Origin: a virus
Length of the DNA: 64,000 bases
Virus record (IMG/VR): IMGVR_UViG_3300037518_000459
Strand: one strand, 5' to 3'
Both the position numbers and the translations under genes were made by a program. This document shows, in pieces, positions 257 to 60,596 of this stretch. The stretch's first letter is position 1; each line of letters starts with the position of its first letter. The notes beneath the pieces were generated by a model that saw only the letters and a program-made list of their open reading frames with translations, had not been told where the DNA came from and ran no database searches.

Positions 257-734
257 CCCGCCATGGGGCGATCGCCAGGGGGCGAGGGTCAAGGGGCCAG
301 GGCGCCAGGGCCGCGGCCGTCGGGCGCGGGCGCGCGCGCGTAGGGGCCGCATGATTGACGCGGCCCGCGCGCCCGTTGCGCAATCCGCCCGCCGCGTTGT
401 GCATTCTGCAGACAGAAAAGGGCCACGCGCCAAGCGGCGCGGGCCCGATTCCGCCCGGAGCCTATCCCGGAAAGCTAGGCGCGCCGCGCCAGGGCCGCGC
501 GGTAGGCCACGCGGCGCGCGGCGCGGCCCATGATTGACGGATCCGTCCGCCACGTCCACGGCATCGCGCCCCGGACCGCGCGGAGGACCGCGCGCGGCGC
601 CGCATCCGCCCGGAGCCCGTCCGCAACGCGTTCCCCGAAAGCGGCCGCGGCGCGCGCCCGGGCCCGCTCATAGGAACCAATTTCCCGGCGGGTTGGCGCC
701 CGATCGGCGACGATGCGCGCCCGCGCGGCCGCGT

Positions 735-1490
735 TCATCGGACCGCCGCTTGCGCGGCCGCGTCCAACGCATGCGCCCCGATCGCATCGGCGACGTCCGC
801 CAGGACATCCCGCAGGGAAGCGGCCCGGTCCGCCGGATCGTAGGCCAGGGCGAACAATGCGAGCCACGCGCGGCCGCGCGAATCCGAGCCTCCGCGTTCC
901 CATTCCGCCGGGGCTTCCACGTCTTTATCCCGTCGGATTGCTGCGAGGATCGGGGGCGCCGCGTCCGCATCGATCGAAAACCCGCTGTCAATGCGGACGC
1001 GCCCGTAGGCTTCCACGAAAGCGGAAGGGTACCCTAGGATCCGGGCCCGAGCCTCATCGACGATGAATCCCGCGGCGCGGATCCGCGCGCATGCGGCCCG
1101 TTGATCTTCCGCTTCCCGGTCCAGCTGGCTCCGGGCCGCGAGGACCGCGCGCCACGTTTCCAGGAATCCGGGAAGGAACCGCCGCGCGACGTCGCGCGCG
1201 ATCTTCTCGGCGCCGCGCGCGGGATCGCAGGAAATGCGCGGCGGTTCGGGCGCGTTCCAATCCCGCGCGGTTCCACCGATGCGCCCGCCGCGCCCGGGAA
1301 GGGCCGCGGAAACGTGGACGCGCGCGGGCCGCGTCCCGTATCCCTGCGCCAAGGTAACGTAGAAAGCGGCGCCATCGGCGCGCGCGACGCGCGCGTATCG
1401 GTGCGAATCCTCCGCATCCCGCGCGTCGACCGTCCAGGGACCATCCGGAAGGGCGGGCGCGATCGCGCCCGCCAATTCGTACGCGTTCAA
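735..1490 (-). CDS. Hypothetical protein, ~251 aa, TTG start
   Basis: Protein-like C-terminal 250 aa of ORF 735..1757. The TTG start sits immediately 3' of the GGAGCCTAGA start-associated motif, and the upstream gene's stop lies within that motif. Confidence 0.5.
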   Translation of the reverse strand: MNAYELAGAIAPALPDGPWTVDARDAEDSHRYARVARADGAAFYVTLAQGYGTRPARVHVSAALPGRGGRIGGTARDWNAPEPPRISCDPARGAEKIARDVARRFLPGFLETWRAVLAARSQLDREAEDQRAACARIRAAGFIVDEARARILGYPSAFVEAYGRVRIDSGFSIDADAAPPILAAIRRDKDVEAPAEWERGGSDSRGRAWLALFALAYDPADRAASLRDVLADVADAIGAHALDAAAQAAVR

Positions 1491-1491
1491 T

Positions 1492-1848
1492 CTAGGCTCC
1501 CCTCCGCCCGTATCGGGCCAGTTCCTGGGAAACGCGCGCCCGAGCCGCATCGCGGGCCGCGTTGATGGCTCCGGGGCGCCCCGCGTTGACCGCGGCGCAC
1601 AATCCCGCGTTGTCGGCATGTTCCCGCAGGGCCGCAAGGTACGCGGCGCGGCGGACGCGGCGCGCGGCGGGGTGGAATCGGTAGGGGGCGGACAGGGCGC
1701 GATTGACCGCGCGAACCACGGAACGGACGGACGCGCCGCAATGGACGCGGCCCGCAACGCGTTCCCCGAGCCATCCGGCCGCGTCTTCCGCCCCGGGCGC
1801 GTTGATGCTGTCCAGCTGGAACGCGCGCAACGCGCGGCGCGGCGCCAC
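1492..1848 (-). CDS. Hypothetical protein, ~118 aa, GTG start
   Basis: C-terminal part of ORF 1492..2046. Its GTG overlaps the TAG stop of the upstream small ORF (TAGTG). Confidence 0.4.
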   Translation of the reverse strand: MAPRRALRAFQLDSINAPGAEDAAGWLGERVAGRVHCGASVRSVVRAVNRALSAPYRFHPAARRVRRAAYLAALREHADNAGLCAAVNAGRPGAINAARDAARARVSQELARYGRRGA

Positions 1849-2003
1849 TATCGGGCCCGCCACGCGGCGCGGATGCGGTCCAGGATCGACGGACGGACGG
1901 GCTCCGGATTGGTCAGGATCGGGCGCGCGCACACTTCCGCGAGAATCGCGACGATGGCCAGGGCGAACCAGAAGAGGCAGAAAAGCGGGAGAATCGGAAA
2001 CAT
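1848..2003 (-). CDS. Small membrane peptide, 51 aa (MFPILPLFCLFWFALAIVAILAEV...)
   Basis: Not in the ORF track because it is under 60 aa. ATG follows GGAGCCTATACC (SAS plus SD), with one strongly hydrophobic TM segment. Confidence 0.45.
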   Translation of the reverse strand: MFPILPLFCLFWFALAIVAILAEVCARPILTNPEPVRPSILDRIRAAWRAR

Positions 2004-2046
2004 GGTATAGGCTCCAGTTCAGGGGCGGGCGGTTTGAACTCGGCAC

Positions 2047-2145
2047 CTAACGGGCGCGGTTCCGGATCCGATCGCAGTAGGTCAGGAACGGGATTCCGGC
2101 GGTCAGGGTGAGAAGGGCCGTTGCGGTCAGGATTGCGAGGATCAT
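2047..2145 (-). CDS. Small membrane peptide, 32 aa (MILAILTATALLTLTAGIPFLTYCDRIRNRAR)
   Basis: ATG is preceded by GGAGCCTAGAA (SAS), with a single TM helix; it is the C-terminal M of ORF 2047..2475. Confidence 0.45.
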   Translation of the reverse strand: MILAILTATALLTLTAGIPFLTYCDRIRNRAR

Positions 2146-2180
2146 TTCTAGGCTCCGGTCTGTCAGGGACGCAGGACCAT

Positions 2181-2200
2181 ATAGCAGGGCCCGTGCCAAT
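2181..2200 (-). promoter_or_regulatory. sigma54-type -24/-12 promoter-like element (rc GATTGGCACGGGCCCTGCTATATG), leftward
   Basis: Matches TGGCACG-N4-nTGC with GG-to-GC spacing of 12; it lies upstream of the gene at 2047..2145 and its operon. Confidence 0.5.
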
Positions 2201-2270
2201 CCACGAAACGACAACGGGCGCCAAACCGCGGGCCCGGTCCGCCAATTCTGGCGAATCCGGGCCCTTGCGG

Positions 2271-2310
2271 TTTGCAACGCCGTTGCAAAATGCGGACGCA
2301 TTCCGCAACG
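2271..2310. promoter_or_regulatory. Dyad-symmetric upstream elements: TTGCAACGCCGTTGCAA and TTGCAAAATGCGGACGCATTCCGCAA
   Basis: Inverted repeats ~90-120 bp upstream of the 2181-2200 promoter, in an enhancer or operator-like position. Confidence 0.5.
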
Positions 2311-2314
2311 TCGA

Positions 2315-2668
2315 CTAGACCGGGACAGACTCCCCGGTCTGGGAATCGTAGATTGCCAGCTGGCCCGCCCGTCGTCCCGCTTCCAGGGCCGCGGCGCGAT
2401 CCTCGAAACCGCGCGAAACGTCCAGGAAATAGCGCCCGGACGCGGGATCCTTCCATCCGCCGAAGTACGCGCCATCGCGCGAAAGGGCGGGCCAGCGGGT
2501 CCGGATGAACTCGGAGAGTTCCGCTTCCGTGGGCTCCCGGTCGAACTCGGCGCCGCCCGCGTCCGATGCCAGAAACCGCGCGGGCGGGGTTTGGTAGTTC
2601 AGGGCCAGGGTAAAACCGCCATCCGCCCAAAGATCGGACGATGCGGGAATAACAACGTGCGCGCGCAA
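2315..2668 (-). CDS. Hypothetical protein, 117 aa, TTG start
   Basis: Protein-like C-terminus of ORF 2315..2875. The TTG start sits after the CCCCTAGACTGGAGCCTACC SAS, and the upstream ATG-initiated stretch has low GC3. Confidence 0.5.
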   Translation of the reverse strand: MRAHVVIPASSDLWADGGFTLALNYQTPPARFLASDAGGAEFDREPTEAELSEFIRTRWPALSRDGAYFGGWKDPASGRYFLDVSRGFEDRAAALEAGRRAGQLAIYDSQTGESVPV

Positions 2669-2741
2669 GGTAGGCTCCAGTCTAGGGGCGAAGCAAGCAA
2701 GGGCGATTGTAGCACGTTCCGGGCCCGTCAGGGAAAGCAAA

Positions 2742-2903
2742 CTATAGCCTAATCTCCTTTCCATCCGTCGAATCGGTCGGGCCTTTTGCGCGCAACCTAG
2801 CGCGCAATTTGCGAAGATCCCGGGACCATCGGGCCGCAAGGGAAAGGAGCCCGACCAGGACAAGGGCCATTGCAAACGCTAGCAGGATCAAGAATCCTTT
2901 CAT
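2742..2903 (-). CDS. Small membrane protein, 53 aa (MKGFLILLAFAMALVLVGLL...)
   Basis: Internal M of ORF 2742..2996, with a TM helix followed by a basic tail; ATGA overlap with the upstream gene. Confidence 0.5.
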   Translation of the reverse strand: MKGFLILLAFAMALVLVGLLSLAARWSRDLRKLRARLRAKGPTDSTDGKEIRL

Positions 2904-3064
2904 TCCAGGGCCCCGCTTTCCAGCAACGCGGCCGCTTGCCGACCGTACCGCCCGGGAAGGGACCAAACGATCCCGGACCGTATGAGTTCGCGCCACGCGT
3001 CCAGGACGTCCGCCGCGTCCGCTTCCGGATCTTCCACCAATTCGAGCGCTTCGATTGGTCCCAT
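2900..3064 (-). CDS. Hypothetical acidic protein, 54 aa
   Basis: Internal M of ORF 2900..3121 (MGPIEALELVEDPEA...), coupled by ATGA to the downstream gene. Confidence 0.4.
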   Translation of the reverse strand: MGPIEALELVEDPEADAADVLDAWRELIRSGIVWSLPGRYGRQAAALLESGALE

Positions 3065-3081
3065 TGCCAACCTACCCTTTC

Positions 3082-3792
3082 CTAGAAACGGTCCGCCGCG
3101 TTGTCGCGCCACCAAACCCATGTAAGGGCTTGGACGCGCGCGGCGGTCAAGCTAGGGGCCAGTTCCGGGAACGCGGCGCGAAGGGCCGCGGCCGCGTCAA
3201 CGTACGCGCGGGCCGCTTCGCGGTATCGTTTGTCGGTCAGTTTCAGGGCGGGCCCGCCCCCTGCGATCGCCCACGCGTGGCGGTCAATGCAAACCGCATC
3301 CGTTGCGCCCGCGGAAACGATCGACCGATAGAACGCGCGGACTTTCGGGCCCCCTAGCACGTCCAGGGGCGGCGCCCCGTCCAGGATCCGGGCCGCTTTC
3401 GCGCGGTTCCGACCGTATCCCGGTCCGGGAAGGATCGGGGCGCCTTGCTTCCACGCGTCCAGGATCGCGGGCGCCCATGCGGTTTGAACGTCCCAGGATA
3501 CTTGAGGGGAAAGGGCCGCAAGCGCCCCGGCCGTCGATTCGACGGACAGCCCGTAAGGGCGCCCGATCCCTGCGCAGAATCGGCGCGCGTTTTCGTACCA
3601 ATCCAGCCCGTCCCGGGCGCGGGCCGCGTCGTCCAGGGCGCGGCGCGCTACCAGTTCCACGCGCGCCGCGGCGGTTCGCGGTTCCAGGAACGGCGGGCGC
3701 GCCCGCGCGGGCGGTTCCGGATCGGCGGGCGCCGCGGGCCCGTTCGCCCAATCGGCGAGCCACCACTCATCAAGCGGGCGGTCAGGATTCAA
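3082..3792 (-). CDS. Hypothetical protein, 236 aa, TTG start
   Basis: ORF-track protein with ordinary composition. Its start is immediately after the CCCCCTGACCGGAGCCTAGCG SAS. Confidence 0.6.
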   Translation of the reverse strand: MNPDRPLDEWWLADWANGPAAPADPEPPARARPPFLEPRTAAARVELVARRALDDAARARDGLDWYENARRFCAGIGRPYGLSVESTAGALAALSPQVSWDVQTAWAPAILDAWKQGAPILPGPGYGRNRAKAARILDGAPPLDVLGGPKVRAFYRSIVSAGATDAVCIDRHAWAIAGGGPALKLTDKRYREAARAYVDAAAALRAAFPELAPSLTAARVQALTWVWWRDNAADRF

Positions 3793-3833
3793 CGCTAGGC
3801 TCCGGTCAGGGGGCGGGTTTCCGCCCCGGAGCG

Positions 3834-3869
3834 TAGCACGGGCCGTGCCAATCCAATAAATGCCAATCC
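3834..3869 (-). promoter_or_regulatory. sigma54-type -24/-12 promoter-like element (rc GATTGGCATTTATTGGATTGGCACGGCCCGTGCTACGCT), leftward
   Basis: TGGCACG-N4-GTGC with correct spacing, a duplicated GATTGGCA, directly upstream of the SAS of gene 3082..3792. Confidence 0.5.
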
Positions 3870-4060: not shown

Positions 4061-4146
4061 GCGAGCTGCGAAACGCGAGCTGCACTTTTGCGAGCTGCAC
4101 TTTCCGAGCTGCACTTTCCGAGCTGCACTTTAGCAGCTGCACTTTC
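4061..4146. repeat. Six tandem ~14-bp iteron-like repeats (C)GAGCTGCACTTTn(n)
   Basis: Direct reading of the non-coding 383-bp gap 3793-4175. Confidence 0.8.
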
Positions 4147-4149
4147 TGC

Positions 4150-4178
4150 GCACCCCCTCTTTAGGCACCCCCTCTTTA
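4150..4178. repeat. Two copies of GCACCCCCTCTTTA overlapping the stop of gene 4176..5531
   Basis: Direct reading. Confidence 0.7.
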
Positions 4179-5531: not shown

Positions 5532-5798
5532 CGGGGGCCTCCTTGAGAAACGGGGCCCCCAGTATAGCAGAAGACCGGCCCCCTCGCGGGAGCCGGCCCG
5601 GTCATTCCGGCCGGTCGTCGAGTACCTCGAACTCCCGCCCGCGGAAGATCAGAACCTCCTCTCCCGCGTCACCCATGACCCAGCAACCAGCGTGTCGAGA
5701 GTTCGGGTTGCTCTCCCACCTCAAGGCTGGGAGCACGCGACCGGCCCGAAGCCCGTGCTCGGATCCAACAGGTACGTCTCTCGTCAGCTGGATGCGCA

Positions 5799-6501: not shown

Positions 6502-6939
6502 TCACTCCCCCGCTTTCACGCGAATGAACCGCCCCGCGGCCCACTCCATGATCTTCGCGGCGGCGCCCGTGTGGTCCTCGCCGTCGAACCAAGGGAGGTC
6601 CTGGATGGACGCGGTCCACCACTCGTCGTCGTCGTCCTTCTCGACAGTCAGGCCCGGTCCGGCGAGCCGGCCACCCCTGGACGGAGCCTCGGTCCAGGCT
6701 TCCACCCTGAACGGCCCGTTGCTGATCAGGGCGTCGATCACCGCGTCGGACCCGCTGCGACCCCGCTCCAGGGTCTCGCGCAGCGCCATGCGGATGGCCG
6801 GAAGCAGCTCAACCAGTTCCTTGTACTGCTGGTCCTGCTGCTGCTCGTACTGCTGCACGTACGACCGACACCAGTCACTCACGAGGTCGAGCGTCCCCAT
6901 CACCGGCGCCTGCTGAACCTTCTTCTTGAAGATGTTCAT
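6502..6939 (-). CDS. Hypothetical protein, 145 aa
   Basis: Internal ATG (MNIFKKK) of ORF 6502..7056 with SD GGGAGG; ATGA overlap with the upstream gene. Confidence 0.5.
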   Translation of the reverse strand: MNIFKKKVQQAPVMGTLDLVSDWCRSYVQQYEQQQDQQYKELVELLPAIRMALRETLERGRSGSDAVIDALISNGPFRVEAWTEAPSRGGRLAGPGLTVEKDDDDEWWTASIQDLPWFDGEDHTGAAAKIMEWAAGRFIRVKAGE

Positions 6940-16868: not shown

Positions 16869-18119
16869 TTACCCCTTCACGCACACGACTTGCTTGAGCA
16901 CCGTCGCCGGCTCGACAAGGTCCACCTGCGCGGCCATGACCGCGTCGATGTCCTTGTACGCGCGCGGGGACTCGTCGAGGACGGTTTCGTCCTTTCGGCA
17001 GTGCACGCCGTGCGTGTCGGCGGCGTGCTGCTCCTTGGTGATCGTGCGCCGCGCCGCCGTCCGGGACATGACCCGGCCGGCGCCGTGGGAGCACGAATGG
17101 AAGGACTCAGGATTCCCGAGCCCGCGAACGATGAAGGACTTCGCGCCCATCGAGCCGGGGATGATGCCCAGGTCGCCCTCGCGAGCGCGGACCGCGCCCT
17201 TGCGCGTGACGATCACGTTCTCCCCGAAGTGGTTCTCGATCGCGGCGTAGTTGTGGTGGCAGTGGATCAGGTCAGCCGCGCGCGGCGCCCGGTCCTCGCC
17301 CAGCGTCGCGTTGATCGCGCGCAGCGCCTGCCGCATCATCAGCAGGCGGTTCTCCCACGCGTAACGCTGGCACCAGTCGAGCGCGAACAGGTAGTCGTCG
17401 TACGCCTTCTCGCCGCGCGGGAAGAACGACAGGTCCTTGTTCGGGAGCTTCGAGTGCCACGCCGCGCACTTCTCCTGAGCGCGCGCGATGAAGTAGCGCG
17501 CGATCCGGTTCCCGATGCCGCGCGAGCCGGAGTGCAGCATCAGCCACACCGTATCGGTCCCGCGCTCCAGGCAGACTTCGATGAAGTGATTCCCGCCGCC
17601 CAGCGTGCCGAGCATGTTCCACGCGTGCGTGTGGGGCCTCGTGCGTCCTTGGGCGAATACGCCCCGATCGCGCTCCATCAGCTCATTGAGACCGGCGCGG
17701 AACTCGCGGTCGTAGACCTCCTTTACCTCTTCCAGCGGGCGCAGCTTCCATCCGCCTTCGTCCGTGTCGATGCGGCCGTGGTCCGAGCGCCCGTGCGGAA
17801 CGGCCACCTCGATCGCCGCGCGCAAGCGGTCTAGCCACCCGACGATCTCCGGCGCGCGCCAGCCCGTCGGGATCGCGAGCATGCCGCACCCGATGTCCAC
17901 CCCGACCGCTGCCGGGATGACGGCGTTCTTCGTCGCGATGACGGAGCCCACGGTGGCACCGAGCCCCCAGTGGGCGTCCGGCATCAGCGCGACGTGCTTG
18001 TGGATGAACGGGAGCCCCGCGATGTCGAGGGCCTGGGCCAGGGTCGCGTCGTCCATCGGAACCGCGCCGTTGCCGTCCCAGACCTTGACCGGCCGAGGGC
18101 TCGTGGAGAAAACCCTCAC
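16869..18119 (-). CDS. rtcB: RtcB RNA ligase (RNA-splicing ligase family), 416 aa, GTG start
   Basis: PVKVW...MPDAHWG...GGGNHFIE...HNYA...HSCSHGAGR motifs are diagnostic of RtcB; SD GGAGGTG. Confidence 0.9.
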   Translation of the reverse strand: MRVFSTSPRPVKVWDGNGAVPMDDATLAQALDIAGLPFIHKHVALMPDAHWGLGATVGSVIATKNAVIPAAVGVDIGCGMLAIPTGWRAPEIVGWLDRLRAAIEVAVPHGRSDHGRIDTDEGGWKLRPLEEVKEVYDREFRAGLNELMERDRGVFAQGRTRPHTHAWNMLGTLGGGNHFIEVCLERGTDTVWLMLHSGSRGIGNRIARYFIARAQEKCAAWHSKLPNKDLSFFPRGEKAYDDYLFALDWCQRYAWENRLLMMRQALRAINATLGEDRAPRAADLIHCHHNYAAIENHFGENVIVTRKGAVRAREGDLGIIPGSMGAKSFIVRGLGNPESFHSCSHGAGRVMSRTAARRTITKEQHAADTHGVHCRKDETVLDESPRAYKDIDAVMAAQVDLVEPATVLKQVVCVKG

Positions 18120-19265: not shown

Positions 19266-19290
19266 CTGCACTTCCCGTGCCAATCTACTA
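19266..19290 (-). promoter_or_regulatory. sigma54-type -24/-12 promoter-like element (rc GATTGGCACGGGAAGTGCAGCT), leftward
   Basis: TGGCACG-N4-GTGC, the same architecture as at 2181, 3834 and 31655. Confidence 0.45.
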
Positions 19291-21804: not shown

Positions 21805-22134
21805 CTAGATCCCCCAGAAGGCGGTCAGCGTCTCCACGGGCGCGGTACCGCGCTCCATGCGCGAGAGCCAGTAGCGCGACACCCCGATCTTCTTGGCGAC
21901 TTCCCCGGCCGTCAGGCCCTTGCGCCGGCGCAGCATGAAGCACTCCTCGTGCGGTTCGAGGATGCCGATCGCCGGGCCGCCGCTCTTGATCTCGTCGGTC
22001 TCCAGCTGCAGCCACTCGTAGAGCGAGACACCAGCGGCGTCCGCGGCCTCACCCTGGGACAGGTTCTGACGACGGCGCTCGATCAGGCGTCGCTCGCCGG
22101 CGGTGAGGTCGGCGGTACGGATTCGGTCAGGCAT
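21805..22134 (-). CDS. Helix-turn-helix DNA-binding protein, 109 aa
   Basis: Two HTH-like segments (GEAADAAGVSLYEW; AGEVAKKIGVSRYWLSRMERG); SD GAGGAG. Confidence 0.65.
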   Translation of the reverse strand: MPDRIRTADLTAGERRLIERRRQNLSQGEAADAAGVSLYEWLQLETDEIKSGGPAIGILEPHEECFMLRRRKGLTAGEVAKKIGVSRYWLSRMERGTAPVETLTAFWGI

Positions 22135-22526: not shown

Positions 22527-24484
22527 TCCACTTCTCCCCAGCTGGGGCCCACGGCGGGGTCGACGCGGGACACGCACTGCAGCTCCAGGCACGTCTCCAT
22601 GAGCCGCGCGCAGAACGAGGCAGCTTCCGGCGACTCAAAGTTGCCGTCCAGCTCGTCGTGCACCTGGAGCCGGATGTCGTAACCCGCGTCGACCGCCGCG
22701 ATCATCGCGAGCTTGGTCTGGTCAGCGGCCGTGCCCTGCACGTACTTGTTGAACGCCTTGTGCAGGAAGTCGTAGCCGTTGCCTGCGCCCTTGCTCGGGA
22801 AGTGCAGGCGCCGACCGCCGGCCGTGGTGATGTAGCCCTTGCGCGCGGCGACGGCCTTCGCGAGCCGCTGCAGCTCCGACAGGAACGGCACCGCGGCGTC
22901 GATGGCGTTGACGATGCCCTCCGTCGCAAGCCCCACCGGCACTAGGAACACGCGCCCGTCCGCCTGGGTCTCCTCCGCGTACGGGAGCCCGAGCTGCATC
23001 GCCAGCTTCCCGAGGCCCGCACCGTAGGCGCGCGCGAGGCCCGCGATCTTGCACTGATCCCGGGTGACGTCCGCCCCTCCGGCGCGCGCCAGGGCCGTGA
23101 CCATGTCGTGGAAGTCCGTCGTGTCCGGCTCCTCGCGGTAGCGGCGCGCGAACTCCGCGGCGCCCCTCAGCCCCTGGGCCACGCCCGCGTGCACCATGAT
23201 CCGGGGCTCCTGCGACGAGTAGTCGAGCTTCCCCCACAAGGCGCCGGGCTCCGGGACGTAGATGCGGCGCCACATGGCCCCGATCTCCCCACGGCGCGGC
23301 TGCTGGTGCAGGTTGGGGGCCTTCAAGGACAAGCGCCCCGTGATCGTGCCGTCCAGGTCGCTCCCGTCGTCCTGGCGCTTGAGCTGGTTGAACGTCGCGT
23401 GCACACGGCCGTCCGCGCCCAGGAAGCGGCGGATAGACGCGCAGAACGTGCGGCGCAGCTTGTCGGCCTTCTTGGCCGCGAGGATCGCGTCGGCCACCGG
23501 GTGGTCGATGAGCCGCAGCGCCTCGGCGGTGACCTCGTAGTCGACGGGCCGGAGTTCGAGCCCGGCCGCCAGCCGCTTCGCGCCGCCCGCGGTCAGGGAG
23601 AACCTGGAGCGGGAGAAGCCGGCCTCCTCCAGCGCGGGCAGGAGGGCCCCCTTGTCTCCCAGCTCGTCGGGGTCGATCCGCCGCCCCGTGTGGTAGCGGA
23701 CGACCTCCAGCTCCTTGCGCGCCTCGGCCAGGGACCACGCCTCCACGTGGGCCAACTGGTCCTGGTCGATCAGGACGCCCTTCTGCCGCATCCCGAGGAG
23801 GATCGGGAGGACCCTGCACTCCATCTCCCACACGCTCCACAGTTCCTTCTCCTCGATCTCCCGCTCCTGTCGGCGGAGCGCGAGGAGGGGGCCCACGGCG
23901 TCCTGCTCCGCGTAGGCCCCGACGTGGGAAGCAGGTAGCCGCCAGAGGTTCCCCTTCACGGACGCGGAGAAGCCCCAGGCCCTGGCCGCTTCGCGCAGGT
24001 GGGACTCGTCCTTGCCGGGTACCCCCCAGCGGCCCAAGACGGCCTCCAAGGTGTAGGAGTGGTGCAGCTCGTAGATCACGGGGTCCGCCACCTGCACGTC
24101 CTTGAACCACTTCGCCGCGGCGAACACGACGTCGTTCGCCGCGAGCCAGTCGAGGTCGTACTGCAGGTTGGCCCCGACGATCGTACCCTGGAACCGATCC
24201 GCTTGATCTTGCAGGTAGCGCCACACGTGCTTCGGGTCCAGGTTCCCGCCGCCCTCGTGGGCGATCGGTAGGTAGTAGGCTCCCCCGTCCTCGATGGCGA
24301 ACGACACGCCGACCACGTACGCGTCGTCCGTGCGGCGCAGTCCGGTGCCGTTCTTCCCGAAGTCCGACGGCTCTCGGGTCTCGACGTCCACGGACACGCG
24401 TCCGTGCACAGGCCACGCCGGCAGCTCCGACACCGGCGTGGGCGTCCACGTGGACGACGGCTCGACGAGGGGGCGCTTGATCAC
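22523..24484 (-). CDS. Family A DNA polymerase (PolA-like) with 3'-5' exonuclease domain, 653 aa
   Basis: Exo motifs VDVETRE and YDLDWL, a polymerase motif resembling DYSQIELR (DYSSQEPRIMVH), and motif C QVHDELD. Confidence 0.9.
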   Translation of the reverse strand: MIKRPLVEPSSTWTPTPVSELPAWPVHGRVSVDVETREPSDFGKNGTGLRRTDDAYVVGVSFAIEDGGAYYLPIAHEGGGNLDPKHVWRYLQDQADRFQGTIVGANLQYDLDWLAANDVVFAAAKWFKDVQVADPVIYELHHSYTLEAVLGRWGVPGKDESHLREAARAWGFSASVKGNLWRLPASHVGAYAEQDAVGPLLALRRQEREIEEKELWSVWEMECRVLPILLGMRQKGVLIDQDQLAHVEAWSLAEARKELEVVRYHTGRRIDPDELGDKGALLPALEEAGFSRSRFSLTAGGAKRLAAGLELRPVDYEVTAEALRLIDHPVADAILAAKKADKLRRTFCASIRRFLGADGRVHATFNQLKRQDDGSDLDGTITGRLSLKAPNLHQQPRRGEIGAMWRRIYVPEPGALWGKLDYSSQEPRIMVHAGVAQGLRGAAEFARRYREEPDTTDFHDMVTALARAGGADVTRDQCKIAGLARAYGAGLGKLAMQLGLPYAEETQADGRVFLVPVGLATEGIVNAIDAAVPFLSELQRLAKAVAARKGYITTAGGRRLHFPSKGAGNGYDFLHKAFNKYVQGTAADQTKLAMIAAVDAGYDIRLQVHDELDGNFESPEAASFCARLMETCLELQCVSRVDPAVGPSWGEVE

Positions 24485-29513: not shown

Positions 29514-31010
29514 TCATCGGAGCCACTCCCGGAGCTGGTCCCCGGTGATCTGGGAAGCGACGTTCATCTTGGTCCGCAGGGCTCGGACGATGTGCCGGTC
29601 CACGGTCCCGGGGGCGACGATGTCGATGTACTGGACGGGGTGCTCCTGCCCGATTCGGTGAGCCCGGTCCTCGGACTGCAGGCGATTCTCCAGGTTGAAG
29701 TCGTTGGAGTAGTAGATCACCGTGGTGGCCGCGGTCAGGGTCAGCCCCGTTCCGCCTGCCGCGGGGTTCGCCACGAAGAACCGCGCGTCGCCCTCCTGGA
29801 AATGCCGGATCGCCTCGGCCCGGGCATCGGATTCCACCTTGCCGTCGTACCGCACGGCCCGCTCCCCGGACTGCGTCAGGGCGTCCATGATGATGTCGAT
29901 GTCCCGCCGGAACCGGGCCCAGATGATACCCTTGCGCTGCGCCGGCATCTCCTCGATGACCTCCATCAGAGCCCCGAGCCGCGGGTTCCCCTCCTTCAGG
30001 TCGCACGGTGACGTGCCCCACGGCCCGCGGCCGGCGGGCTCCGGATCCTGGAAGTCGTCCGAGGGCAGGTACCCGCACAGGATCTGCTGAAGCCGCAGGA
30101 GGCGCGTGATCGCCATGTCCGCGGTGACCGGCTCCCCGGAGTCGAGCCACACGATGTACTCATCGCGCAGCTGCTCGTAGATCCGGGCCTGCTCGGGGGT
30201 GGGCTCGAAGAGCCGCTCGCCGTAGAGCTTCGGCGGCAGGTTCAGCACGTCGTCCTTCGTCACGCGGGTACTGATCCCCTTCAGCATCTCCTGCAGCTGG
30301 TCCAGGCGCCGGTACGCCACCACGTGGTCGTACATGCGCCGCTGCTGGTGGTTCTCGCGGCTCTCGATGACGGCGAAGTACGACTTGAACGTCGCGAACG
30401 TGTCCAGGTGCCGCTCCCGCCAGAAGCTAGGCTCCAGGAAGCGAATCTGCGAGTAGACATCGAAGGGCCCGTTGGTCACGGGCGTCCCGGTCAGGATCCG
30501 GCGGAACGGGGCGTACTTCCCGAGCGTCAGGATGCGCTTCGTGCGCGCGGCGCCCGGGGTCTTGATGCGAGTCGACTCGTCGAGCACCAGGAGCCCCGTG
30601 CGCTTGATCAGGAAGTCCATCGCCGCCTTGTTGCCCCGCGGCGTGATCACCGCATCGTAGGACATCGTCAGGACGGCCAAGCCTTCGTGCAGCACCAGCT
30701 CCCGGAACGCTTCGGCGTGCCGCTTCGTACCAGCGCGCTTCGACTCCCAGAAGAGAGCGCGCACCGGGATCCTGTCCGGGAGGTGCGCGGGCAGCTCGTT
30801 GTCGATCCAGTTGCGGTGGACGCCGTTGGGCGCAACCACGAGCAGCGCGTCGACCTTGTCCTCGGCGTGGAGCATGGCCGCCGTGTCGATCACGAGCTTC
30901 GACTTCCCGGTGCCCATCTCCCAGAAGAGCGCGCGGACATCGTCCCCCCAATGTGCCTCCAGCTCCTCGCGCTGGTGGTCGAAGGGCCGCGTCTTGGGAA
31001 CGTAGTTCAA
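29514..31010 (-). CDS. SNF2-family helicase/ATPase, 498 aa, TTG start
   Basis: Motif I GTGKS and motif II LVLDESTRIK in the SNF2_N part, plus a helicase-C region; TTGA coupling. Confidence 0.85.
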   Translation of the reverse strand: MNYVPKTRPFDHQREELEAHWGDDVRALFWEMGTGKSKLVIDTAAMLHAEDKVDALLVVAPNGVHRNWIDNELPAHLPDRIPVRALFWESKRAGTKRHAEAFRELVLHEGLAVLTMSYDAVITPRGNKAAMDFLIKRTGLLVLDESTRIKTPGAARTKRILTLGKYAPFRRILTGTPVTNGPFDVYSQIRFLEPSFWRERHLDTFATFKSYFAVIESRENHQQRRMYDHVVAYRRLDQLQEMLKGISTRVTKDDVLNLPPKLYGERLFEPTPEQARIYEQLRDEYIVWLDSGEPVTADMAITRLLRLQQILCGYLPSDDFQDPEPAGRGPWGTSPCDLKEGNPRLGALMEVIEEMPAQRKGIIWARFRRDIDIIMDALTQSGERAVRYDGKVESDARAEAIRHFQEGDARFFVANPAAGGTGLTLTAATTVIYYSNDFNLENRLQSEDRAHRIGQEHPVQYIDIVAPGTVDRHIVRALRTKMNVASQITGDQLREWLR

Positions 31011-31474
31011 CTCCGGACCCCCATGCGGTTCTTCTTCGTCTCGGTGGCGCGGCGCAGCGCGACGAGTGCCTCGGAAATCTGGTCAATCGGTTGCTCCACG
31101 CACACGCTGTGCACGGTTCCGTCACCCTCGATGTCGCTCCTACTGCGGTCCGTCCACTCGGCGAAGACGACGTGCAGCAACTCGTGCACCAAGGTCGTCT
31201 CCATGTCGTACCACAACCGAGGTTCCTCGGTTCGATGGTCCCGGGGATCCAAGAGGTGAACGGTAGCAGCGCGCCGAGAAGCCAGCCACGTAGCGGCGCC
31301 CTGGATGTGGTCCTGCGGAAGATCGGGGGCCCTGGTGATCTTCAGGTTGATCTTCCATGCCTGGAGCCCAAGGCGCGGGACCCAGTAGTCCAGGAGCTGC
31401 TCCAGCTCCTCACCGGTGAGGTAGACGTTGATCGGATCGTGCTCGGGCGGGTCGAAGTGCTGGATCAGAGCCAA
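31007..31474 (-). CDS. HExxH motif (putative zinc metallopeptidase-like) protein, 155 aa, TTG start
   Basis: LVHELLHVVF; SD AGGAGG. Confidence 0.5.
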   Translation of the reverse strand: MALIQHFDPPEHDPINVYLTGEELEQLLDYWVPRLGLQAWKINLKITRAPDLPQDHIQGAATWLASRRAATVHLLDPRDHRTEEPRLWYDMETTLVHELLHVVFAEWTDRSRSDIEGDGTVHSVCVEQPIDQISEALVALRRATETKKNRMGVRS

Positions 31475-31654: not shown

Positions 31655-31676
31655 TGGCACGGGTCGTGCTATACTC
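31655..31676 (+). promoter_or_regulatory. sigma54-type -24/-12 promoter-like element TTGGCACGGGTCGTGCTATACT, rightward, preceded by GATTGGCA
   Basis: TGGCACG-N4-GTGC with GG/GC spacing of 12; it lies ~27 nt upstream of the GAAGGAGG-GTG start of the plus-strand cassette. Confidence 0.5.
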
Positions 31677-57649: not shown

Positions 57650-59102
57650 CGTCTTCGTCTTCGTCCGGCGGGACCGCGTCGCGGTTGTCCAGGTTCGGGA
57701 CGCGCGGCGGCGGGAGTTCAGTCGGAATGTCCTCGGACATCAATTCCTTCGTCTTCTCGAACGTGAACTCGGTCGCACCGCCGCGCACCGCGAGCGCGTG
57801 CAGCTCCGCATCGCTGATGGGGAAGCCCGCGTTCTGCGCCTGCGCCCACTCGAACGCTTCCTGCCCGGTCATCGTCGGGGTCGCGAAGTCCAGATCCGGA
57901 CGGAACACGACCAGCTCCGGGTTCTCGCCGAGGGTGACCGCGATCTTGCGTAGAGCCATCTGCAGGGCGTCGCCAGCGTTGATCACCACGTTCTTCAGGG
58001 TGACCTGCTTCGCGTGCTCCCGCTTCGCCAGCGCGCGCCCGGATTCGGGGGCCGCGTCGCCCGGCGACAAGAGTCTCGCGCCCTCCTCCCAGAAGCGAAC
58101 GTATTGGTCGTTGATTGCATCCCGCTGCAGGGGGATCCCCTTGCCGTCGATGTCCAGGTACGCGGCCTTGGCGTCGGTGTTGGGGAAGTTCCAGATGCTC
58201 TGGCCCCCGATCGCCGTGGGGACATCCTCGTCCATCACCCCAGACAGCACGACCTGGGGGTCACTCTTGTTGTACAGCGACCGGTAGTAGTCCGCGGTGA
58301 GCCGGTAGATGCGCAGGGCCCGCTTGGTGAGCGGGGACAGGGGCACCGCCCCGTACTGGAACCCGATGTCCAGCGTGTTCACCGACAGGAAGGGAATCTC
58401 GTCGAAGGTCTTCCCGAAGTAGGTCACCGGCTCCCAGGGCTCCACCTCGACGTATCGCCCATCCCGGTTCTCGACGACACGCGACTGGTACACGCCCTCG
58501 CGCATGCGCAGCTCGCGCCAGAACGTCACTTCCTTCGCCCGGAAGGAATCGTCCTGGGCATCGATCTCGCGGATCTCGCGTAGCACCACGAACTGGATCT
58601 TCTCACCGGTACGCTTCGAGCCCAGGCGCCAGTTCGTGATGTTCTCGACGCTGTACGTGGCGAACCGCAGCAGGTCGTCCTCGCTTCCTACGTCGCACAG
58701 CAACCCGATGCGTCCCCCGCTGAGGATCTCGCGCGTCATCGTGCGCCACAGCACCTGCAGCGACTCGCCATCCACGGTCGAGTCGTCCATCAGGTACTTC
58801 ATCTTCGGCGGCAGCTCCACGCGCGCAGGCTTCGAGTGGATGATACCCTGGAATCCATTGAGCGCCGGCTCCACGATCTCCGGGAACTCGGCGAAGGTCT
58901 GATAGTGCGCGTAGCGCGACGTCCCGACGCGCTTTCCACCCTCCAGGAACTCGCTAACGGAGCCCGCCGGCATCCCGGGGGGTGCCGGGAGGTAGTCGAT
59001 TCCGCGGGACTTCACCGCGCGCTCGCCCGCCAGGGCGTCGCGGTTCATCCGCCAGTCGTCTTCGCGGGCCTTGTATTCGGGGTGCGTGGTGTCGATCGGC
59101 AT
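57633..59102 (-). CDS. Portal protein, 489 aa
   Basis: Size, acidic C-terminus, position directly after the large terminase. Confidence 0.7.
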   Translation of the reverse strand: MPIDTTHPEYKAREDDWRMNRDALAGERAVKSRGIDYLPAPPGMPAGSVSEFLEGGKRVGTSRYAHYQTFAEFPEIVEPALNGFQGIIHSKPARVELPPKMKYLMDDSTVDGESLQVLWRTMTREILSGGRIGLLCDVGSEDDLLRFATYSVENITNWRLGSKRTGEKIQFVVLREIREIDAQDDSFRAKEVTFWRELRMREGVYQSRVVENRDGRYVEVEPWEPVTYFGKTFDEIPFLSVNTLDIGFQYGAVPLSPLTKRALRIYRLTADYYRSLYNKSDPQVVLSGVMDEDVPTAIGGQSIWNFPNTDAKAAYLDIDGKGIPLQRDAINDQYVRFWEEGARLLSPGDAAPESGRALAKREHAKQVTLKNVVINAGDALQMALRKIAVTLGENPELVVFRPDLDFATPTMTGQEAFEWAQAQNAGFPISDAELHALAVRGGATEFTFEKTKELMSEDIPTELPPPRVPNLDNRDAVPPDEDEDDGDGE

Positions 59103-59105
59103 GGC

Positions 59106-60596
59106 CTATCTTCCTTGGAAGGGCTTCACGCCCATGCGTGACGGGCGCGTGAAAAGCCGGTAACGGACCTCGTCCCCGACGTGGTCCTCGCTCTCTGTGT
59201 CAACGTCGTCGATCTTGCGACTGTCCCGAGACAGGCTGGGCACCGTCCGGAAGAACTGCTCGCAACAGTCGAACACGAAGAAGCCCGGCTCCTCGCGTGA
59301 GCCCTGCTTGGCCACCCGTAGCATATCACGGATCCGCTGCCAACCCAACTCCCGGGTGCCGGGGCCCTTGCTGGCCCTGACCCAGTAGACCCCGAACTTC
59401 GCCATGATCTGCGCCACGGACTCGTCCTGGTCCGTCGCCCAAATCTGGGAATCAGCGGGTCCCGGGCGGATCTTGCGCTCCCCGAAGATGCGCTTCTCAC
59501 GCTCCCGGATCCCCTCGGCCACCTGGGACGCCGTCATGCGGCAGCCCTCGTCCACGTTCCCGGTCCACCCGTACCACTCCGCGATGCGGAAGACGTCCCC
59601 CCGCCGCGTCGGCCCGAAGCCCGGAACGTCGCACCCATCGGACTGCGCGTACCAGCCGACGGAGAAGGGCCGCGACGACCCCCAGTCGAACGCGCGGTCG
59701 ATGATCCACGTGTCCGGGATCGGGAAGGGCGTGATGAAGTGCACGCCCTTGTCCCAGATGTCGTCGAACATCCCGCCGGCGATGATGTCCCAGTCGCCGT
59801 GCAGCCACGCGCGCTCCATGCTCTCGCTGGTCGCGGACTGCCGCAGGCGGGACTTGTACCCGGGGTCAGCGTGCAGGAGGACCCTGTTCTCCTCCAGGTA
59901 GCCGTGGATGGCGACCCGCTCGTTGGTGCCCCCATCTTCGTCCGTCTCGCGGATGACGCGCCCGACGACCTTGCCCCGTTCGATCGGGAGGTGGAACCGC
60001 GAGCGCACCCAGTTGTGTCCGCGGCCGAACGGGTTCGTCGTCGATCGATACTTGCGTGGCATGCCGGGCGTGGTAGACCGGCACACGGACATCATCATCA
60101 GGTAGCACTTGTCGTCGGGCCACGTCGTCAGCTCTTCCCACGCGATCCACGGATAGGCATGGCCGTGGTAGTCCCAGTAGCCGTCGACGTTCTTGATGTT
60201 CCGGAAGTAGAGCTTCTCGCCGTCCGGGAACGTCCACTCGGGGTTCGGGGAGCTGGTGAAGCGCGCCTTCGGGAAGAGGAGCGGGAACCACTTCAACGAC
60301 TTCTGGATGACGTCTTCCAGCTCGGGGTACGTCCGCCGGAAGAGGATGCCCTTCCACTCCGCGCCCCAGCCCTGCCCCACGTGCTGCGCGAAGTCCATCA
60401 GCAGCGCGTCGGTTTTGCCGGGCCCGCGCGTACCCTCGTACAGCACCTCGAAAACCGGGCACTCCAGGAATGCTTCCTGGCTGCCCGGCTGAGGCGCCCA
60501 CGTCACGCGGCGGCGGTCCTCGTTCGCTTCGATCAGGAACGGGGAGAGCTGGTTTTCCTCGTCGACTTCCCAGACGAGGGTGGGGGCGAGGCTCAC
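59106..60596 (-). CDS. Terminase large subunit, 496 aa
   Basis: N-terminal ATPase (GTRGPGKT) and C-terminal nuclease-like region; upstream of the portal. Confidence 0.8.
   Translation of the reverse strand: MSLAPTLVWEVDEENQLSPFLIEANEDRRRVTWAPQPGSQEAFLECPVFEVLYEGTRGPGKTDALLMDFAQHVGQGWGAEWKGILFRRTYPELEDVIQKSLKWFPLLFPKARFTSSPNPEWTFPDGEKLYFRNIKNVDGYWDYHGHAYPWIAWEELTTWPDDKCYLMMMSVCRSTTPGMPRKYRSTTNPFGRGHNWVRSRFHLPIERGKVVGRVIRETDEDGGTNERVAIHGYLEENRVLLHADPGYKSRLRQSATSESMERAWLHGDWDIIAGGMFDDIWDKGVHFITPFPIPDTWIIDRAFDWGSSRPFSVGWYAQSDGCDVPGFGPTRRGDVFRIAEWYGWTGNVDEGCRMTASQVAEGIREREKRIFGERKIRPGPADSQIWATDQDESVAQIMAKFGVYWVRASKGPGTRELGWQRIRDMLRVAKQGSREEPGFFVFDCCEQFFRTVPSLSRDSRKIDDVDTESEDHVGDEVRYRLFTRPSRMGVKPFQGR

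Follow-up and report, generated by a model that had tools for sequence, protein, structure and literature searches.

A start-associated sequence before five genes of one module in an uncultured siphovirus, and its reverse-complement copy as a candidate antisense partner

The IMG/VR virus record IMGVR_UViG_3300037518_000459 represents an uncultured siphovirus of 67% G+C, and the 64,000-nt stretch analysed here, which we call the window, makes up most of its genome of ~66 kb. Nearly all of the genes lie on the minus strand, in the order terminase, portal, capsid, tail genes, DNA polymerase, primase and small genes; the portal protein shares only 31-36% identity with its counterparts in cultured siphoviruses of Proteobacteria. 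Our subject is a module of nine minus-strand genes at 475-3792, named gA to gI here, together with the 8-mer GGAGCCTA, which stands directly in front of five of them and which we treat as a start-associated sequence (SAS). At third codon positions the module has a G+C of 0.76-0.85, below the 0.85-0.95 seen elsewhere in the genome, and the module looks like three transcription units: gA-gC, gD and gE-gI. Seven public metagenome contigs are 100% identical across this region; no polymorphism was found among them, and they are therefore uninformative on this point. One of the seven, L134, extends the genome beyond window position 1 into a non-coding repeat region, followed by early genes and the terminase.

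Counting both strands, the window contains eight exact copies of the 8-mer, where 1.10 would be expected; this number was not attained in any of 100 shuffles. Five copies, at 1493-3803 on the minus strand, each lie 2-4 nt upstream of the start of gA, gD, gE, gF or gH, confirming a motif that an initial annotation of this DNA had noticed before five minus-strand starts. They share one orientation, lie downstream of the replication genes and follow intergenic gaps of 383, 73, 169, 43 and 1 nt; GGAG stands 6-8 nt from all five start codons, with no alternative Shine-Dalgarno (SD) sequence there, and CCTA is invariant in five of five copies. The three copies away from starts are at 24276-24283 (minus strand, inside the DNA polymerase open reading frame, ORF), at 30428-30435 (minus strand, inside ORF 29514-31082) and at 457-464 on the opposite strand, three copies being near the level of about 1.1 that chance alone would give. 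All other likely gene starts in the window lack GGAGCCTA and have GGAGG, GGAGA or AAGGAG sites, so the restriction to this module that the annotation had claimed holds for the start-associated copies. Variants with one mismatch occur only as often as expected (40 against 40.4), so the copies in the module are unusually exact.

The starts themselves are supported in several ways. Gene calls stored for the seven identical contigs use the same five starts, except that gH is 271 aa long on two of them, and homologue N-termini agree for gA (where the DEWW region is conserved), gD and gH, the gD and gH orthologues starting, with ATG, at the corresponding positions. These N-termini bear out the non-ATG start calls. 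An additional C-rich box, which had been assigned to four of the five genes, is exactly CCCCTGA before gA and gF, TCCCTGA before gE and the variant CCCCTAGA before gD; none precedes the gH start at 1490. We rejected CCCTGA(A/C)C as a separate over-represented DNA signal, most extra copies being CTG-AAC or CTG-ACC codon pairs on the coding strand. Likewise rejected was a functional stop at the upstream TGA, TAG or TAA: its frame relative to the downstream start varies (spacing 13, 13, 17 and 15 nt), and it does not terminate any upstream ORF.

Protein searches for relatives in IMG/VR, JGI metagenomes and GTDB genomes gave only more distant gA homologues or ones on short contigs; gA homologues on short metagenome contigs are 52-68% identical, and searches with gH and gI found only the phage's own contigs and contig L316. 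Contigs L149 and L316 together encode relatives of gA (62% identical), gD (59%), gG (46%), gH (53%) and gI (72%). In this relative the exact 8-mer precedes four genes, namely gA (GGAGCCTAtcgcGTG), gD (GGAGCCTAgcaaaATG), a gene for a 50-aa membrane protein in the position of gE (GGAGCCTAaccGTG) and gH (GGAGCCTAgcatcATG), and a fifth gene has GGAGCCAA; CCTA is present in four of its five sites. In copy 5 of the window the TAG of the motif (1494-1492) is the stop codon of gG, and the TAG of L316 likewise ends the gG orthologue. At the four orthologous sites the flanks (40 nt upstream and 20 nt downstream) are only 54% identical, whereas the motif matches at 32 of 32 positions; purifying selection therefore acts on all eight positions, beyond the GGAG core, in line with the suggestion that the motif is more than an SD sequence. 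The gD orthologue retains TGGAGCCTA although the remaining leader, including the C-rich box, has been replaced. We found no support for another suggestion, that the motif marks a recombination-prone module boundary: the copies lie inside the module before individual cistrons, and orthologous sites are kept in place in the relative.

The remaining relatives have other sites. Contig L153 (sample ERZ27292723), with a gA that is 68% identical, carries GGAGCCTGA, GGAGCTTGA and GGAGCCCAC, its sites reading GGAGCYTGA in degenerate code, and L312, L313, L150 and L151 have ordinary or different sites, variants among the relatives including GGAGTAGG and CGGAGG. Within one genome the motif is thus uniform, and between genomes it drifts, a pattern that fits recognition by a phage-supplied factor.

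Table 1. Module genes, motif copies and neighbouring elements, in window coordinates (genes from start to stop).
Feature	Position	Strand	Details
SAS copy 1	3796-3803	minus	GGAGCCTA gcg TTG(3792), gA; 3-nt gap
SAS copy 2	2671-2678	minus	GGAGCCTA cc TTG(2668), gD; 2-nt gap
SAS copy 3	2149-2156	minus	GGAGCCTA gaa ATG(2145), gE; 3-nt gap
SAS copy 4	2008-2015	minus	GGAGCCTA tacc ATG(2003), gF; 4-nt gap
SAS copy 5	1493-1500	minus	GGAGCCTA ga TTG(1490), gH; 2-nt gap
Upstream C-rich box, copy 1	3806-3812	minus	exact CCCCTGA; C-run is 3' arm of leader hairpin GGGGCGG-aaac-CCGCCCC
Upstream box, copy 2	2681-2688	minus	variant CCCCTAGA
Upstream box, copy 3	2163-2169	minus	TCCCTGA
Upstream box, copy 4	2019-2025	minus	exact CCCCTGA
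Reverse-complement copy (anti-SAS)	457-464	minus-strand RNA	reads UAGGCUCC, exact reverse complement of SAS; starts 11 nt past gI stop; followed by GGGCGG and terminator
Intrinsic-terminator-like hairpin and U-tract	423-442	minus	ends gE-gI unit
gA	3792-3082	minus	TTG start; DUF7178; 236 aa
gB	3064-2900	minus	ATG start; DUF7417; own ribosome site GAAAGGGTAGGTTGGCA; no SAS
gC	2903-2742	minus	ATG start; ATGA overlap with gB stop; no SAS
gD	2668-2315	minus	TTG start; 117 aa
gE	2145-2047	minus	ATG start; 32-aa hydrophobic peptide, probably membrane
gF	2003-1848	minus	ATG start; 51-aa hydrophobic peptide, probably membrane
gG	1848-1492	minus	GTG start; TAGTG overlap with gF; no SAS
gH	1490-735	minus	TTG start; 251 aa
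gI	738-475	minus	ATG start; ATGA overlap with gH; no SAS
Promoter-like motif, gA	3834-3850	minus	TGGCACGGCCCGTGCTA; -24/-12 geometry; about 40 nt upstream of gA start
Promoter-like motif, gD	2710-2725	minus	GGCCCGGAACGTGCTA(CAAT); upstream of gD
Promoter-like motif, gE	2182-2198	minus	TGGCACGGGCCCTGCTA; upstream of gE
Further promoter-like motif	5565-5580	minus	
Further promoter-like motif	31655-31671	plus	
Further promoter-like motif	19267-19282	minus	
gA leader hairpin	3794-3837	minus	UACGCUCCGG pairs with CCGGAGCCUA around inner GC stem; z = -2.5

The copy at 457-464 is read by minus-strand RNA as the reverse complement of the motif, and we call it the anti-SAS; no start codon follows it on the plus strand. 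Its complementarity to the SAS is exact over 8 nt and extends to 10 nt (UAGGCUCCGG) against copies 1 and 3. In L316 the same reverse 8-mer, at 2972-2979, begins at the called stop of the gI orthologue, lies in a 9-nt hairpin loop and is followed by a strong hairpin and UUUU; the position of the reverse copy after gI is conserved in the two phages. By a post hoc estimate from base composition, the chance of an 8-mer complement within a stretch of ~100 nt is about 0.002 per phage. For duplexes between this 3' segment and the SAS initiation regions, the predicted energies are as low as -21 to -31 kcal/mol in the window and, in L149/L316, -34 to -35 kcal/mol; the SAS sites are the top three predicted duplex targets in both phages, and the upstream C-rich box is predicted to pair with the G-rich tract adjoining the anti-SAS. 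The region thus has what would be expected of an antisense or 3'-untranslated-region (3'-UTR) RNA: a target-complementary seed, an adjacent intrinsic terminator and retention in L316. A search of the region against Rfam gave no meaningful match.

Pattern scans of IMG/VR with CCCTGA-N-GGAGCCTA and GAAAGTGCAGCTCG gave only single chance-like matches among the matches listed. One multi-copy locus came up, L044 8725-10570 (IMGVR_UViG_3300034092_001898), and was rejected: it is an unrelated viral contig of lower G+C with four copies of a hairpin repeat, GCCCGCCCGGAGCCTATCCGGGC, 30-45 nt upstream of starts. This repeat has 17 contiguous bases in common with window positions 448-464 (plus strand), in the anti-SAS region, possibly a coincidence between two CCGG-flanked hairpins.

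A reverse copy is also found among mycobacteriophages. The SAS of Cluster K, GGGATAGGAGCCC, stands 3-7 bp before starts, in the right arm only and always in the same orientation, apart from one reverse copy in K1 phages (PMC3203893; PMC11373665, an Adephagia study; PMC12699233); SASs have been catalogued in hundreds of Cluster K phages, including therapeutic candidates, and their role was described as unknown in 2024-2025 (PMC11373665, PMC12699233). In Anaya, which has 16 forward SASs, we located the reverse copy beyond the last of them, in intergenic sequence that follows gp96 and in the apical loop, CCUCCUAUCC, of a hairpin (z = -2.4) at 34850-34905 of L317 (Anaya 59,849-59,904), with homologous regions in L320-L327. 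In Adephagia the hairpin is at 58,654-58,727, corresponding to Anaya 59,839-59,914. Of 126 phage records with the K1 hairpin region, nine were aligned: eight retain the loop, and compensatory changes occur at three stem pairs. The literature that we searched holds no description of a K1 reverse SAS in a conserved hairpin loop.

About 30 nt upstream of three SAS copies (gA, gD and gE) is a promoter-like motif, (T)GGCMYG-N5-TGCTA-YNNT. The pattern GGCNNG-N5-TGCTA has five matches in the window against 0.24 expected, all five in apparent intergenic positions, and the motif is also present in L149, L150, L153, L312 and L316. Two copies are one base off the sigma-54 consensus TGGCACG-N4-TTGCW, but an extended -10 element would be an equally good reading of TGCTAYNNT. 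The first early gene is preceded by a canonical TTGACT-N17-TATACT promoter (L134, about 6812-6850). In L316 two promoter-leader cassettes are duplicated, and in L149 a perfect inverted copy of the SAS overlaps the gA promoter-like motif.

The gA leader is predicted to fold into a strong hairpin whose counterpart in L149 has a perfect 10-bp outer stem (z = -3.4). Its 5' arm overlaps the promoter-like motif and would occur only in read-through transcripts; in the model, the SD of gA would be occluded only in transcripts begun upstream of the promoter-like motif, a fold-back device at one site. We rejected a general SD-occluding hairpin at each SAS, because significant folding is confined to the gA leader and its L149 orthologue and is absent from the other four leaders; that of gD (site 2) is, at z = +2.6, significantly unstructured. 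Upstream of gA, the 383-nt gap also contains tandem repeats, CGAGCTGCACTTTC (five copies, 4076-4146) and GCACCCCCTCTTTAG (two copies, 4150-4178), and both families recur upstream of gA homologues in four relatives (L149 4190-4330, L153 170-290, L312 and L313); they could be binding sites of a regulator or activator, or an origin. At about 2211-2299, past the gD stop and ahead of the promoter-like motif of gE, lies a long imperfect inverted repeat that probably terminates the gD unit; its only matches in Rfam are spurious microRNA-precursor ones.

Other features of the genome were noted alongside the motif. The products of gG (1492-1848) and gI (475-738) are small Arg/Ala-rich proteins that share RRV(R)(R)AAY(L/R)AAL toward their C-terminal parts; both are kept in L316, with the identities given above, and nucleic-acid binding by them is conceivable. 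A second type of ribosome site, G(G)GTAGGTTGG(C)A ATG, stands before gB (3047-3064) and before the gA homologue of L312 (about 750-767), and a related site, GAAAGGGTTAGCAC GTG, before gC-like genes of L149 and L312; it seems that in these relatives a few types of initiation region are shuffled between non-orthologous genes. An RtcB RNA ligase is encoded at 16869-18119 on the minus strand (Pfam E = 8e-122). At the window start are a 27-bp tandem repeat of 2.6 copies (1-70), each unit palindromic (CCCTGTGTC..GACACAGGG), and a 15-bp tandem repeat of six copies (104-194). Beyond it, L134 6100-6760 is an AT-richer non-coding region rich in CTTAACC/GGTTAAG repeats, with CTTATCC repeats in the same place in L316. 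This repeat region is probably a genome end, a packaging site or an origin region.

By analogy, then, GGAGCCTA can be regarded as a start-associated sequence in function that falls outside the Cluster K family in sequence. Its GGAG is the SD core of those cistrons of the module that start translation independently, the others seemingly being coupled by overlap, and gB having a site of the second type. Outside the SD, the invariant bases are CCUA, with C(C/U) before them in most cases, and these cannot pair with the canonical 16S rRNA tail. We propose that CCUA would act as an mRNA address tag for a sequence-specific trans-acting regulator that controls the messages of the module as a group, at the level of translation or stability; a translational control element, as the initial annotation had suggested, is plausible. 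The sole partner candidate visible in the sequence is UAGGCUCC(GG)GCGG, at the 3' untranslated end of the last transcription unit and just before its terminator. Pairing over 8-10 bp with each SAS, and in addition with the C-rich upstream box, would out-compete the 4-bp contact between SD and anti-SD, such that only the tagged genes would be shut off. An RNA of this kind is also a candidate explanation for the bipartite shape of the element, upstream box plus motif. We infer action at the RNA level, with antisense pairing as the mechanism. The best explanation of the whole, which we put at slightly less than an even chance, is that the SAS combines an SD sequence with an address tag read in trans, the anti-SAS RNA being the leading candidate for the reader. 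A broader form of this idea, which we consider doubtful, is that SASs are private tags for a phage-encoded anti-Shine-Dalgarno RNA, with a reverse copy in a downstream loop or 3'-UTR repressing the tagged genes jointly and leaving other messages untouched, and that this arrangement arose independently here and in Cluster K1.

Several observations weigh against this explanation. Other G-rich windows pair equally well, the true 3' segment ranking only 6th to 10th of 31,911 windows for pairing with all five sites, so that pairing energies alone are weak evidence; in the minimum-energy fold of the window, moreover, part of the anti-SAS is paired locally. The openness of the SAS initiation regions is only slightly higher than that of 40 other genes, a difference that is not significant (p = 0.08). 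The exact motif is known from two related phages only, and the second of these consists of L149 and L316, which we took as one phage because both stem from sample SRR14194063 and because the parts of the module that they carry are complementary; their sequences do not overlap. A Pfam scan of 30 proteins of the module and the replication region found no RNA-binding regulator. Lastly, the anti-SAS is not universal: the right arms of TM4 and Pixie, and the first 30 kb of the FelixO1-like Citrobacter phage Mordin, have forward copies without a reverse copy, and antisense pairing therefore cannot be the general reason for SASs.

The absence of a reverse copy from some SAS systems makes a protein partner a serious rival, although we consider it unlikely for this module. 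Here the SAS would be read on the mRNA by a RegA-like repressor or activator, or by a RegB-like endoribonuclease that cuts in or near GGAG and times the shut-off of the messages, and the reverse copy would be incidental or would serve the terminator. Selection on non-SD bases, and a motif that is uniform within a genome and different between genomes, would fit a protein reader. Mordin, in turn, repeats a GGAG-containing leader in front of about 15 early genes and also has a gene with a RegB-like annotation, and the RtcB RNA ligase of both this phage and Anaya would fit RNA cleavage and repair during infection. Nonetheless, no RegA-, RegB-, CsrA- or other RNA-binding domain was detected by Pfam and PHROGs in the 30 proteins, with about 25 further ORFs lying outside the scan, and the reverse copy holding its place after gI in two diverged phages is left unexplained.

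Alternatively, there may be no trans-acting partner. A cassette of promoter, leader and ribosome-binding site (RBS) could have spread by duplication or recombination and been kept for the translation level it gives, probably a low one with a 4-bp SD and often a TTG start. The copies do fall into two near-identical subtypes, CGCCCCT(A)GAACTGGAGCCTA in copies 2 and 4 and CCCTGAC..ACCGGAGCCTAG in copies 1 and 3. The duplicated cassettes of L316, the whole leaders that Mordin repeats before many early genes and the unstructured leader at site 2 are of a piece with this. However, ribosomes are not known to read CCUA, and yet the motif is invariant at orthologous sites with far more divergent flanks; the gD orthologue keeps TGGAGCCTA despite a replaced leader; and the conserved reverse copy gets no role. 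We judge this explanation, too, to have a small share of the probability.

Action on DNA is less probable still. In that case the motif would be an asymmetric binding site of a phage regulator, similar to a stoperator, and would lie near starts simply because that is where intergenic space is found. The sites are indeed short and asymmetric, in one orientation and in short intergenic gaps, sometimes overlapping stop codons, and the reverse copy would be just one more site for the protein, as might the inverted copy that overlaps the gA promoter-like motif in L149. A helix-turn-helix (HTH) protein is encoded at 21805-22134, although nothing links it to the motif. Against this stand the tight GGAG-to-start spacing of 6-8 nt and the lack of any other SD at these genes. 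In addition, the position of the reverse copy in a hairpin loop in L316 and Anaya, with compensatory stem changes in Cluster K, is expected of RNA and not of duplex DNA. We can dismiss as hardly credible an extended SD matched to an unusual 16S rRNA 3' tail of the host, because roughly 50 other genes use canonical GGAGG, AGGAG or GGAGA and the host anti-SD is therefore ordinary CCUCC, and equally a chance repeat, which the enrichment and the conserved sites of the relative rule out.

The phage adds a second, unrelated lineage with SAS-like architecture, and with it clean comparative evidence for selection on the non-SD bases of a start-associated motif. It also supplies a concrete candidate partner for SASs, a conserved reverse complement at the 3' end of the tagged gene set, with a Cluster K1 counterpart in a conserved hairpin loop. 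If the antisense reading is true, it would explain a Cluster K feature unexplained since 2011; if it fails, what is left is still a well-documented phage-specific extended ribosome-binding tag. The motif also helps to set non-ATG start calls in metagenomic phage genomes.

The resemblance to mycobacteriophage SASs that the initial annotation had pointed out stands as an analogy of arrangement, and does not extend to membership by sequence. Cluster K membership is defined by GGGATAGGAGCCC with at most two mismatches (PMC3203893, PMC12699233); in the window this pattern has three matches against 2.13 expected, which is chance level, with none at the five sites, and only GGAGCC is shared. The arrangement is nevertheless similar in many respects. 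In both cases a short asymmetric motif stands 2-7 nt before start codons, combines an SD core with conserved bases unable to pair with 16S rRNA, keeps one orientation, is confined to a non-structural region and favours genes that follow an intergenic gap, with the upstream stop codon sometimes inside the motif. Some copies have a promoter-containing extension upstream (about half in Cluster K); here, three of the five copies follow a promoter-like motif of differing sequence and geometry, with an inverted repeat only in the gA leader. As in K1 phages, a single reverse copy lies downstream of all forward copies and away from a gene start. Like Anaya (gp88), the phage encodes an RtcB-like RNA ligase, which may be coincidence or a hint of RNA cleavage and repair linked to SAS biology. 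By contrast, GGAGCCTA is 8-10 nt long and GGGATAGGAGCCC 13 nt; there are five copies in one 3.3-kb module as opposed to 11-19 across a 25-kb arm; three of five starts are TTG, against a strong ATG bias; and the upstream motif has -24/-12 geometry in place of SigA -35/-10 elements with 17-bp inverted repeats. The phage itself is uncultured, with structural proteins nearest to those of siphoviruses of Proteobacteria, and is not an actinobacteriophage.

Parallels outside Cluster K are more partial. The small RNAs CpxQ and SroC of enterobacteria derive from 3'-UTRs, end at terminators and pair with ribosome-binding sites. The putative RNA described here likewise has an SD-complementary seed immediately upstream of an intrinsic terminator at an mRNA 3' end, but its predicted targets are cistrons of its own module, in a self-regulating loop with one private tag for all. 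In the IS10 and IS50 transposase messages, fold-back inhibition operates; similarly, gA leader sequence upstream of the predicted transcription start is modelled to pair with the RBS, so that read-through transcripts would be silent and promoter-initiated ones open, although this applies to only one of five sites and the transcription start is predicted only. The RegB and RegA factors of T4 act on SD or start-region sequences of defined early messages and switch them off jointly, RegB cutting within GGAG; unlike T4, this phage has no RegA or RegB homologue among the scanned proteins, and the motif context GGAGCCUA differs from the purine/A-rich context of RegB targets.

Mordin carries a 26-bp leader repeat (PMC4611695), a repeated leader ending in ..CCT(A/G)AACTGGAG..CTA.. 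before many small early genes. Site 4 here (CCCCTGAACTGGAGCCTATACC ATG) and the Mordin site (ATCCTAAACTGGAGAATCTAAA ATG) have 11 contiguous-block positions in common and the same 8-nt spacing from GGAG to ATG, but in Mordin a whole AT-rich leader of 26-45 nt is repeated, here just 8-10 nt, and the RegB-like annotation of Mordin has no match among the proteins scanned here. The stoperators of Cluster A mycobacteriophages, the sites of L5 gp71, are asymmetric 13-bp sequences in many copies (cited in PMC3203893), and share asymmetry, one orientation relative to transcription and a place in short intergenic gaps with the motif; unlike it, they act on DNA by blocking transcription, with neither an SD nor a fixed spacing to start codons. 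By its arrangement the element described here belongs with the start-associated sequences, and it offers a testable lead on how they may work.

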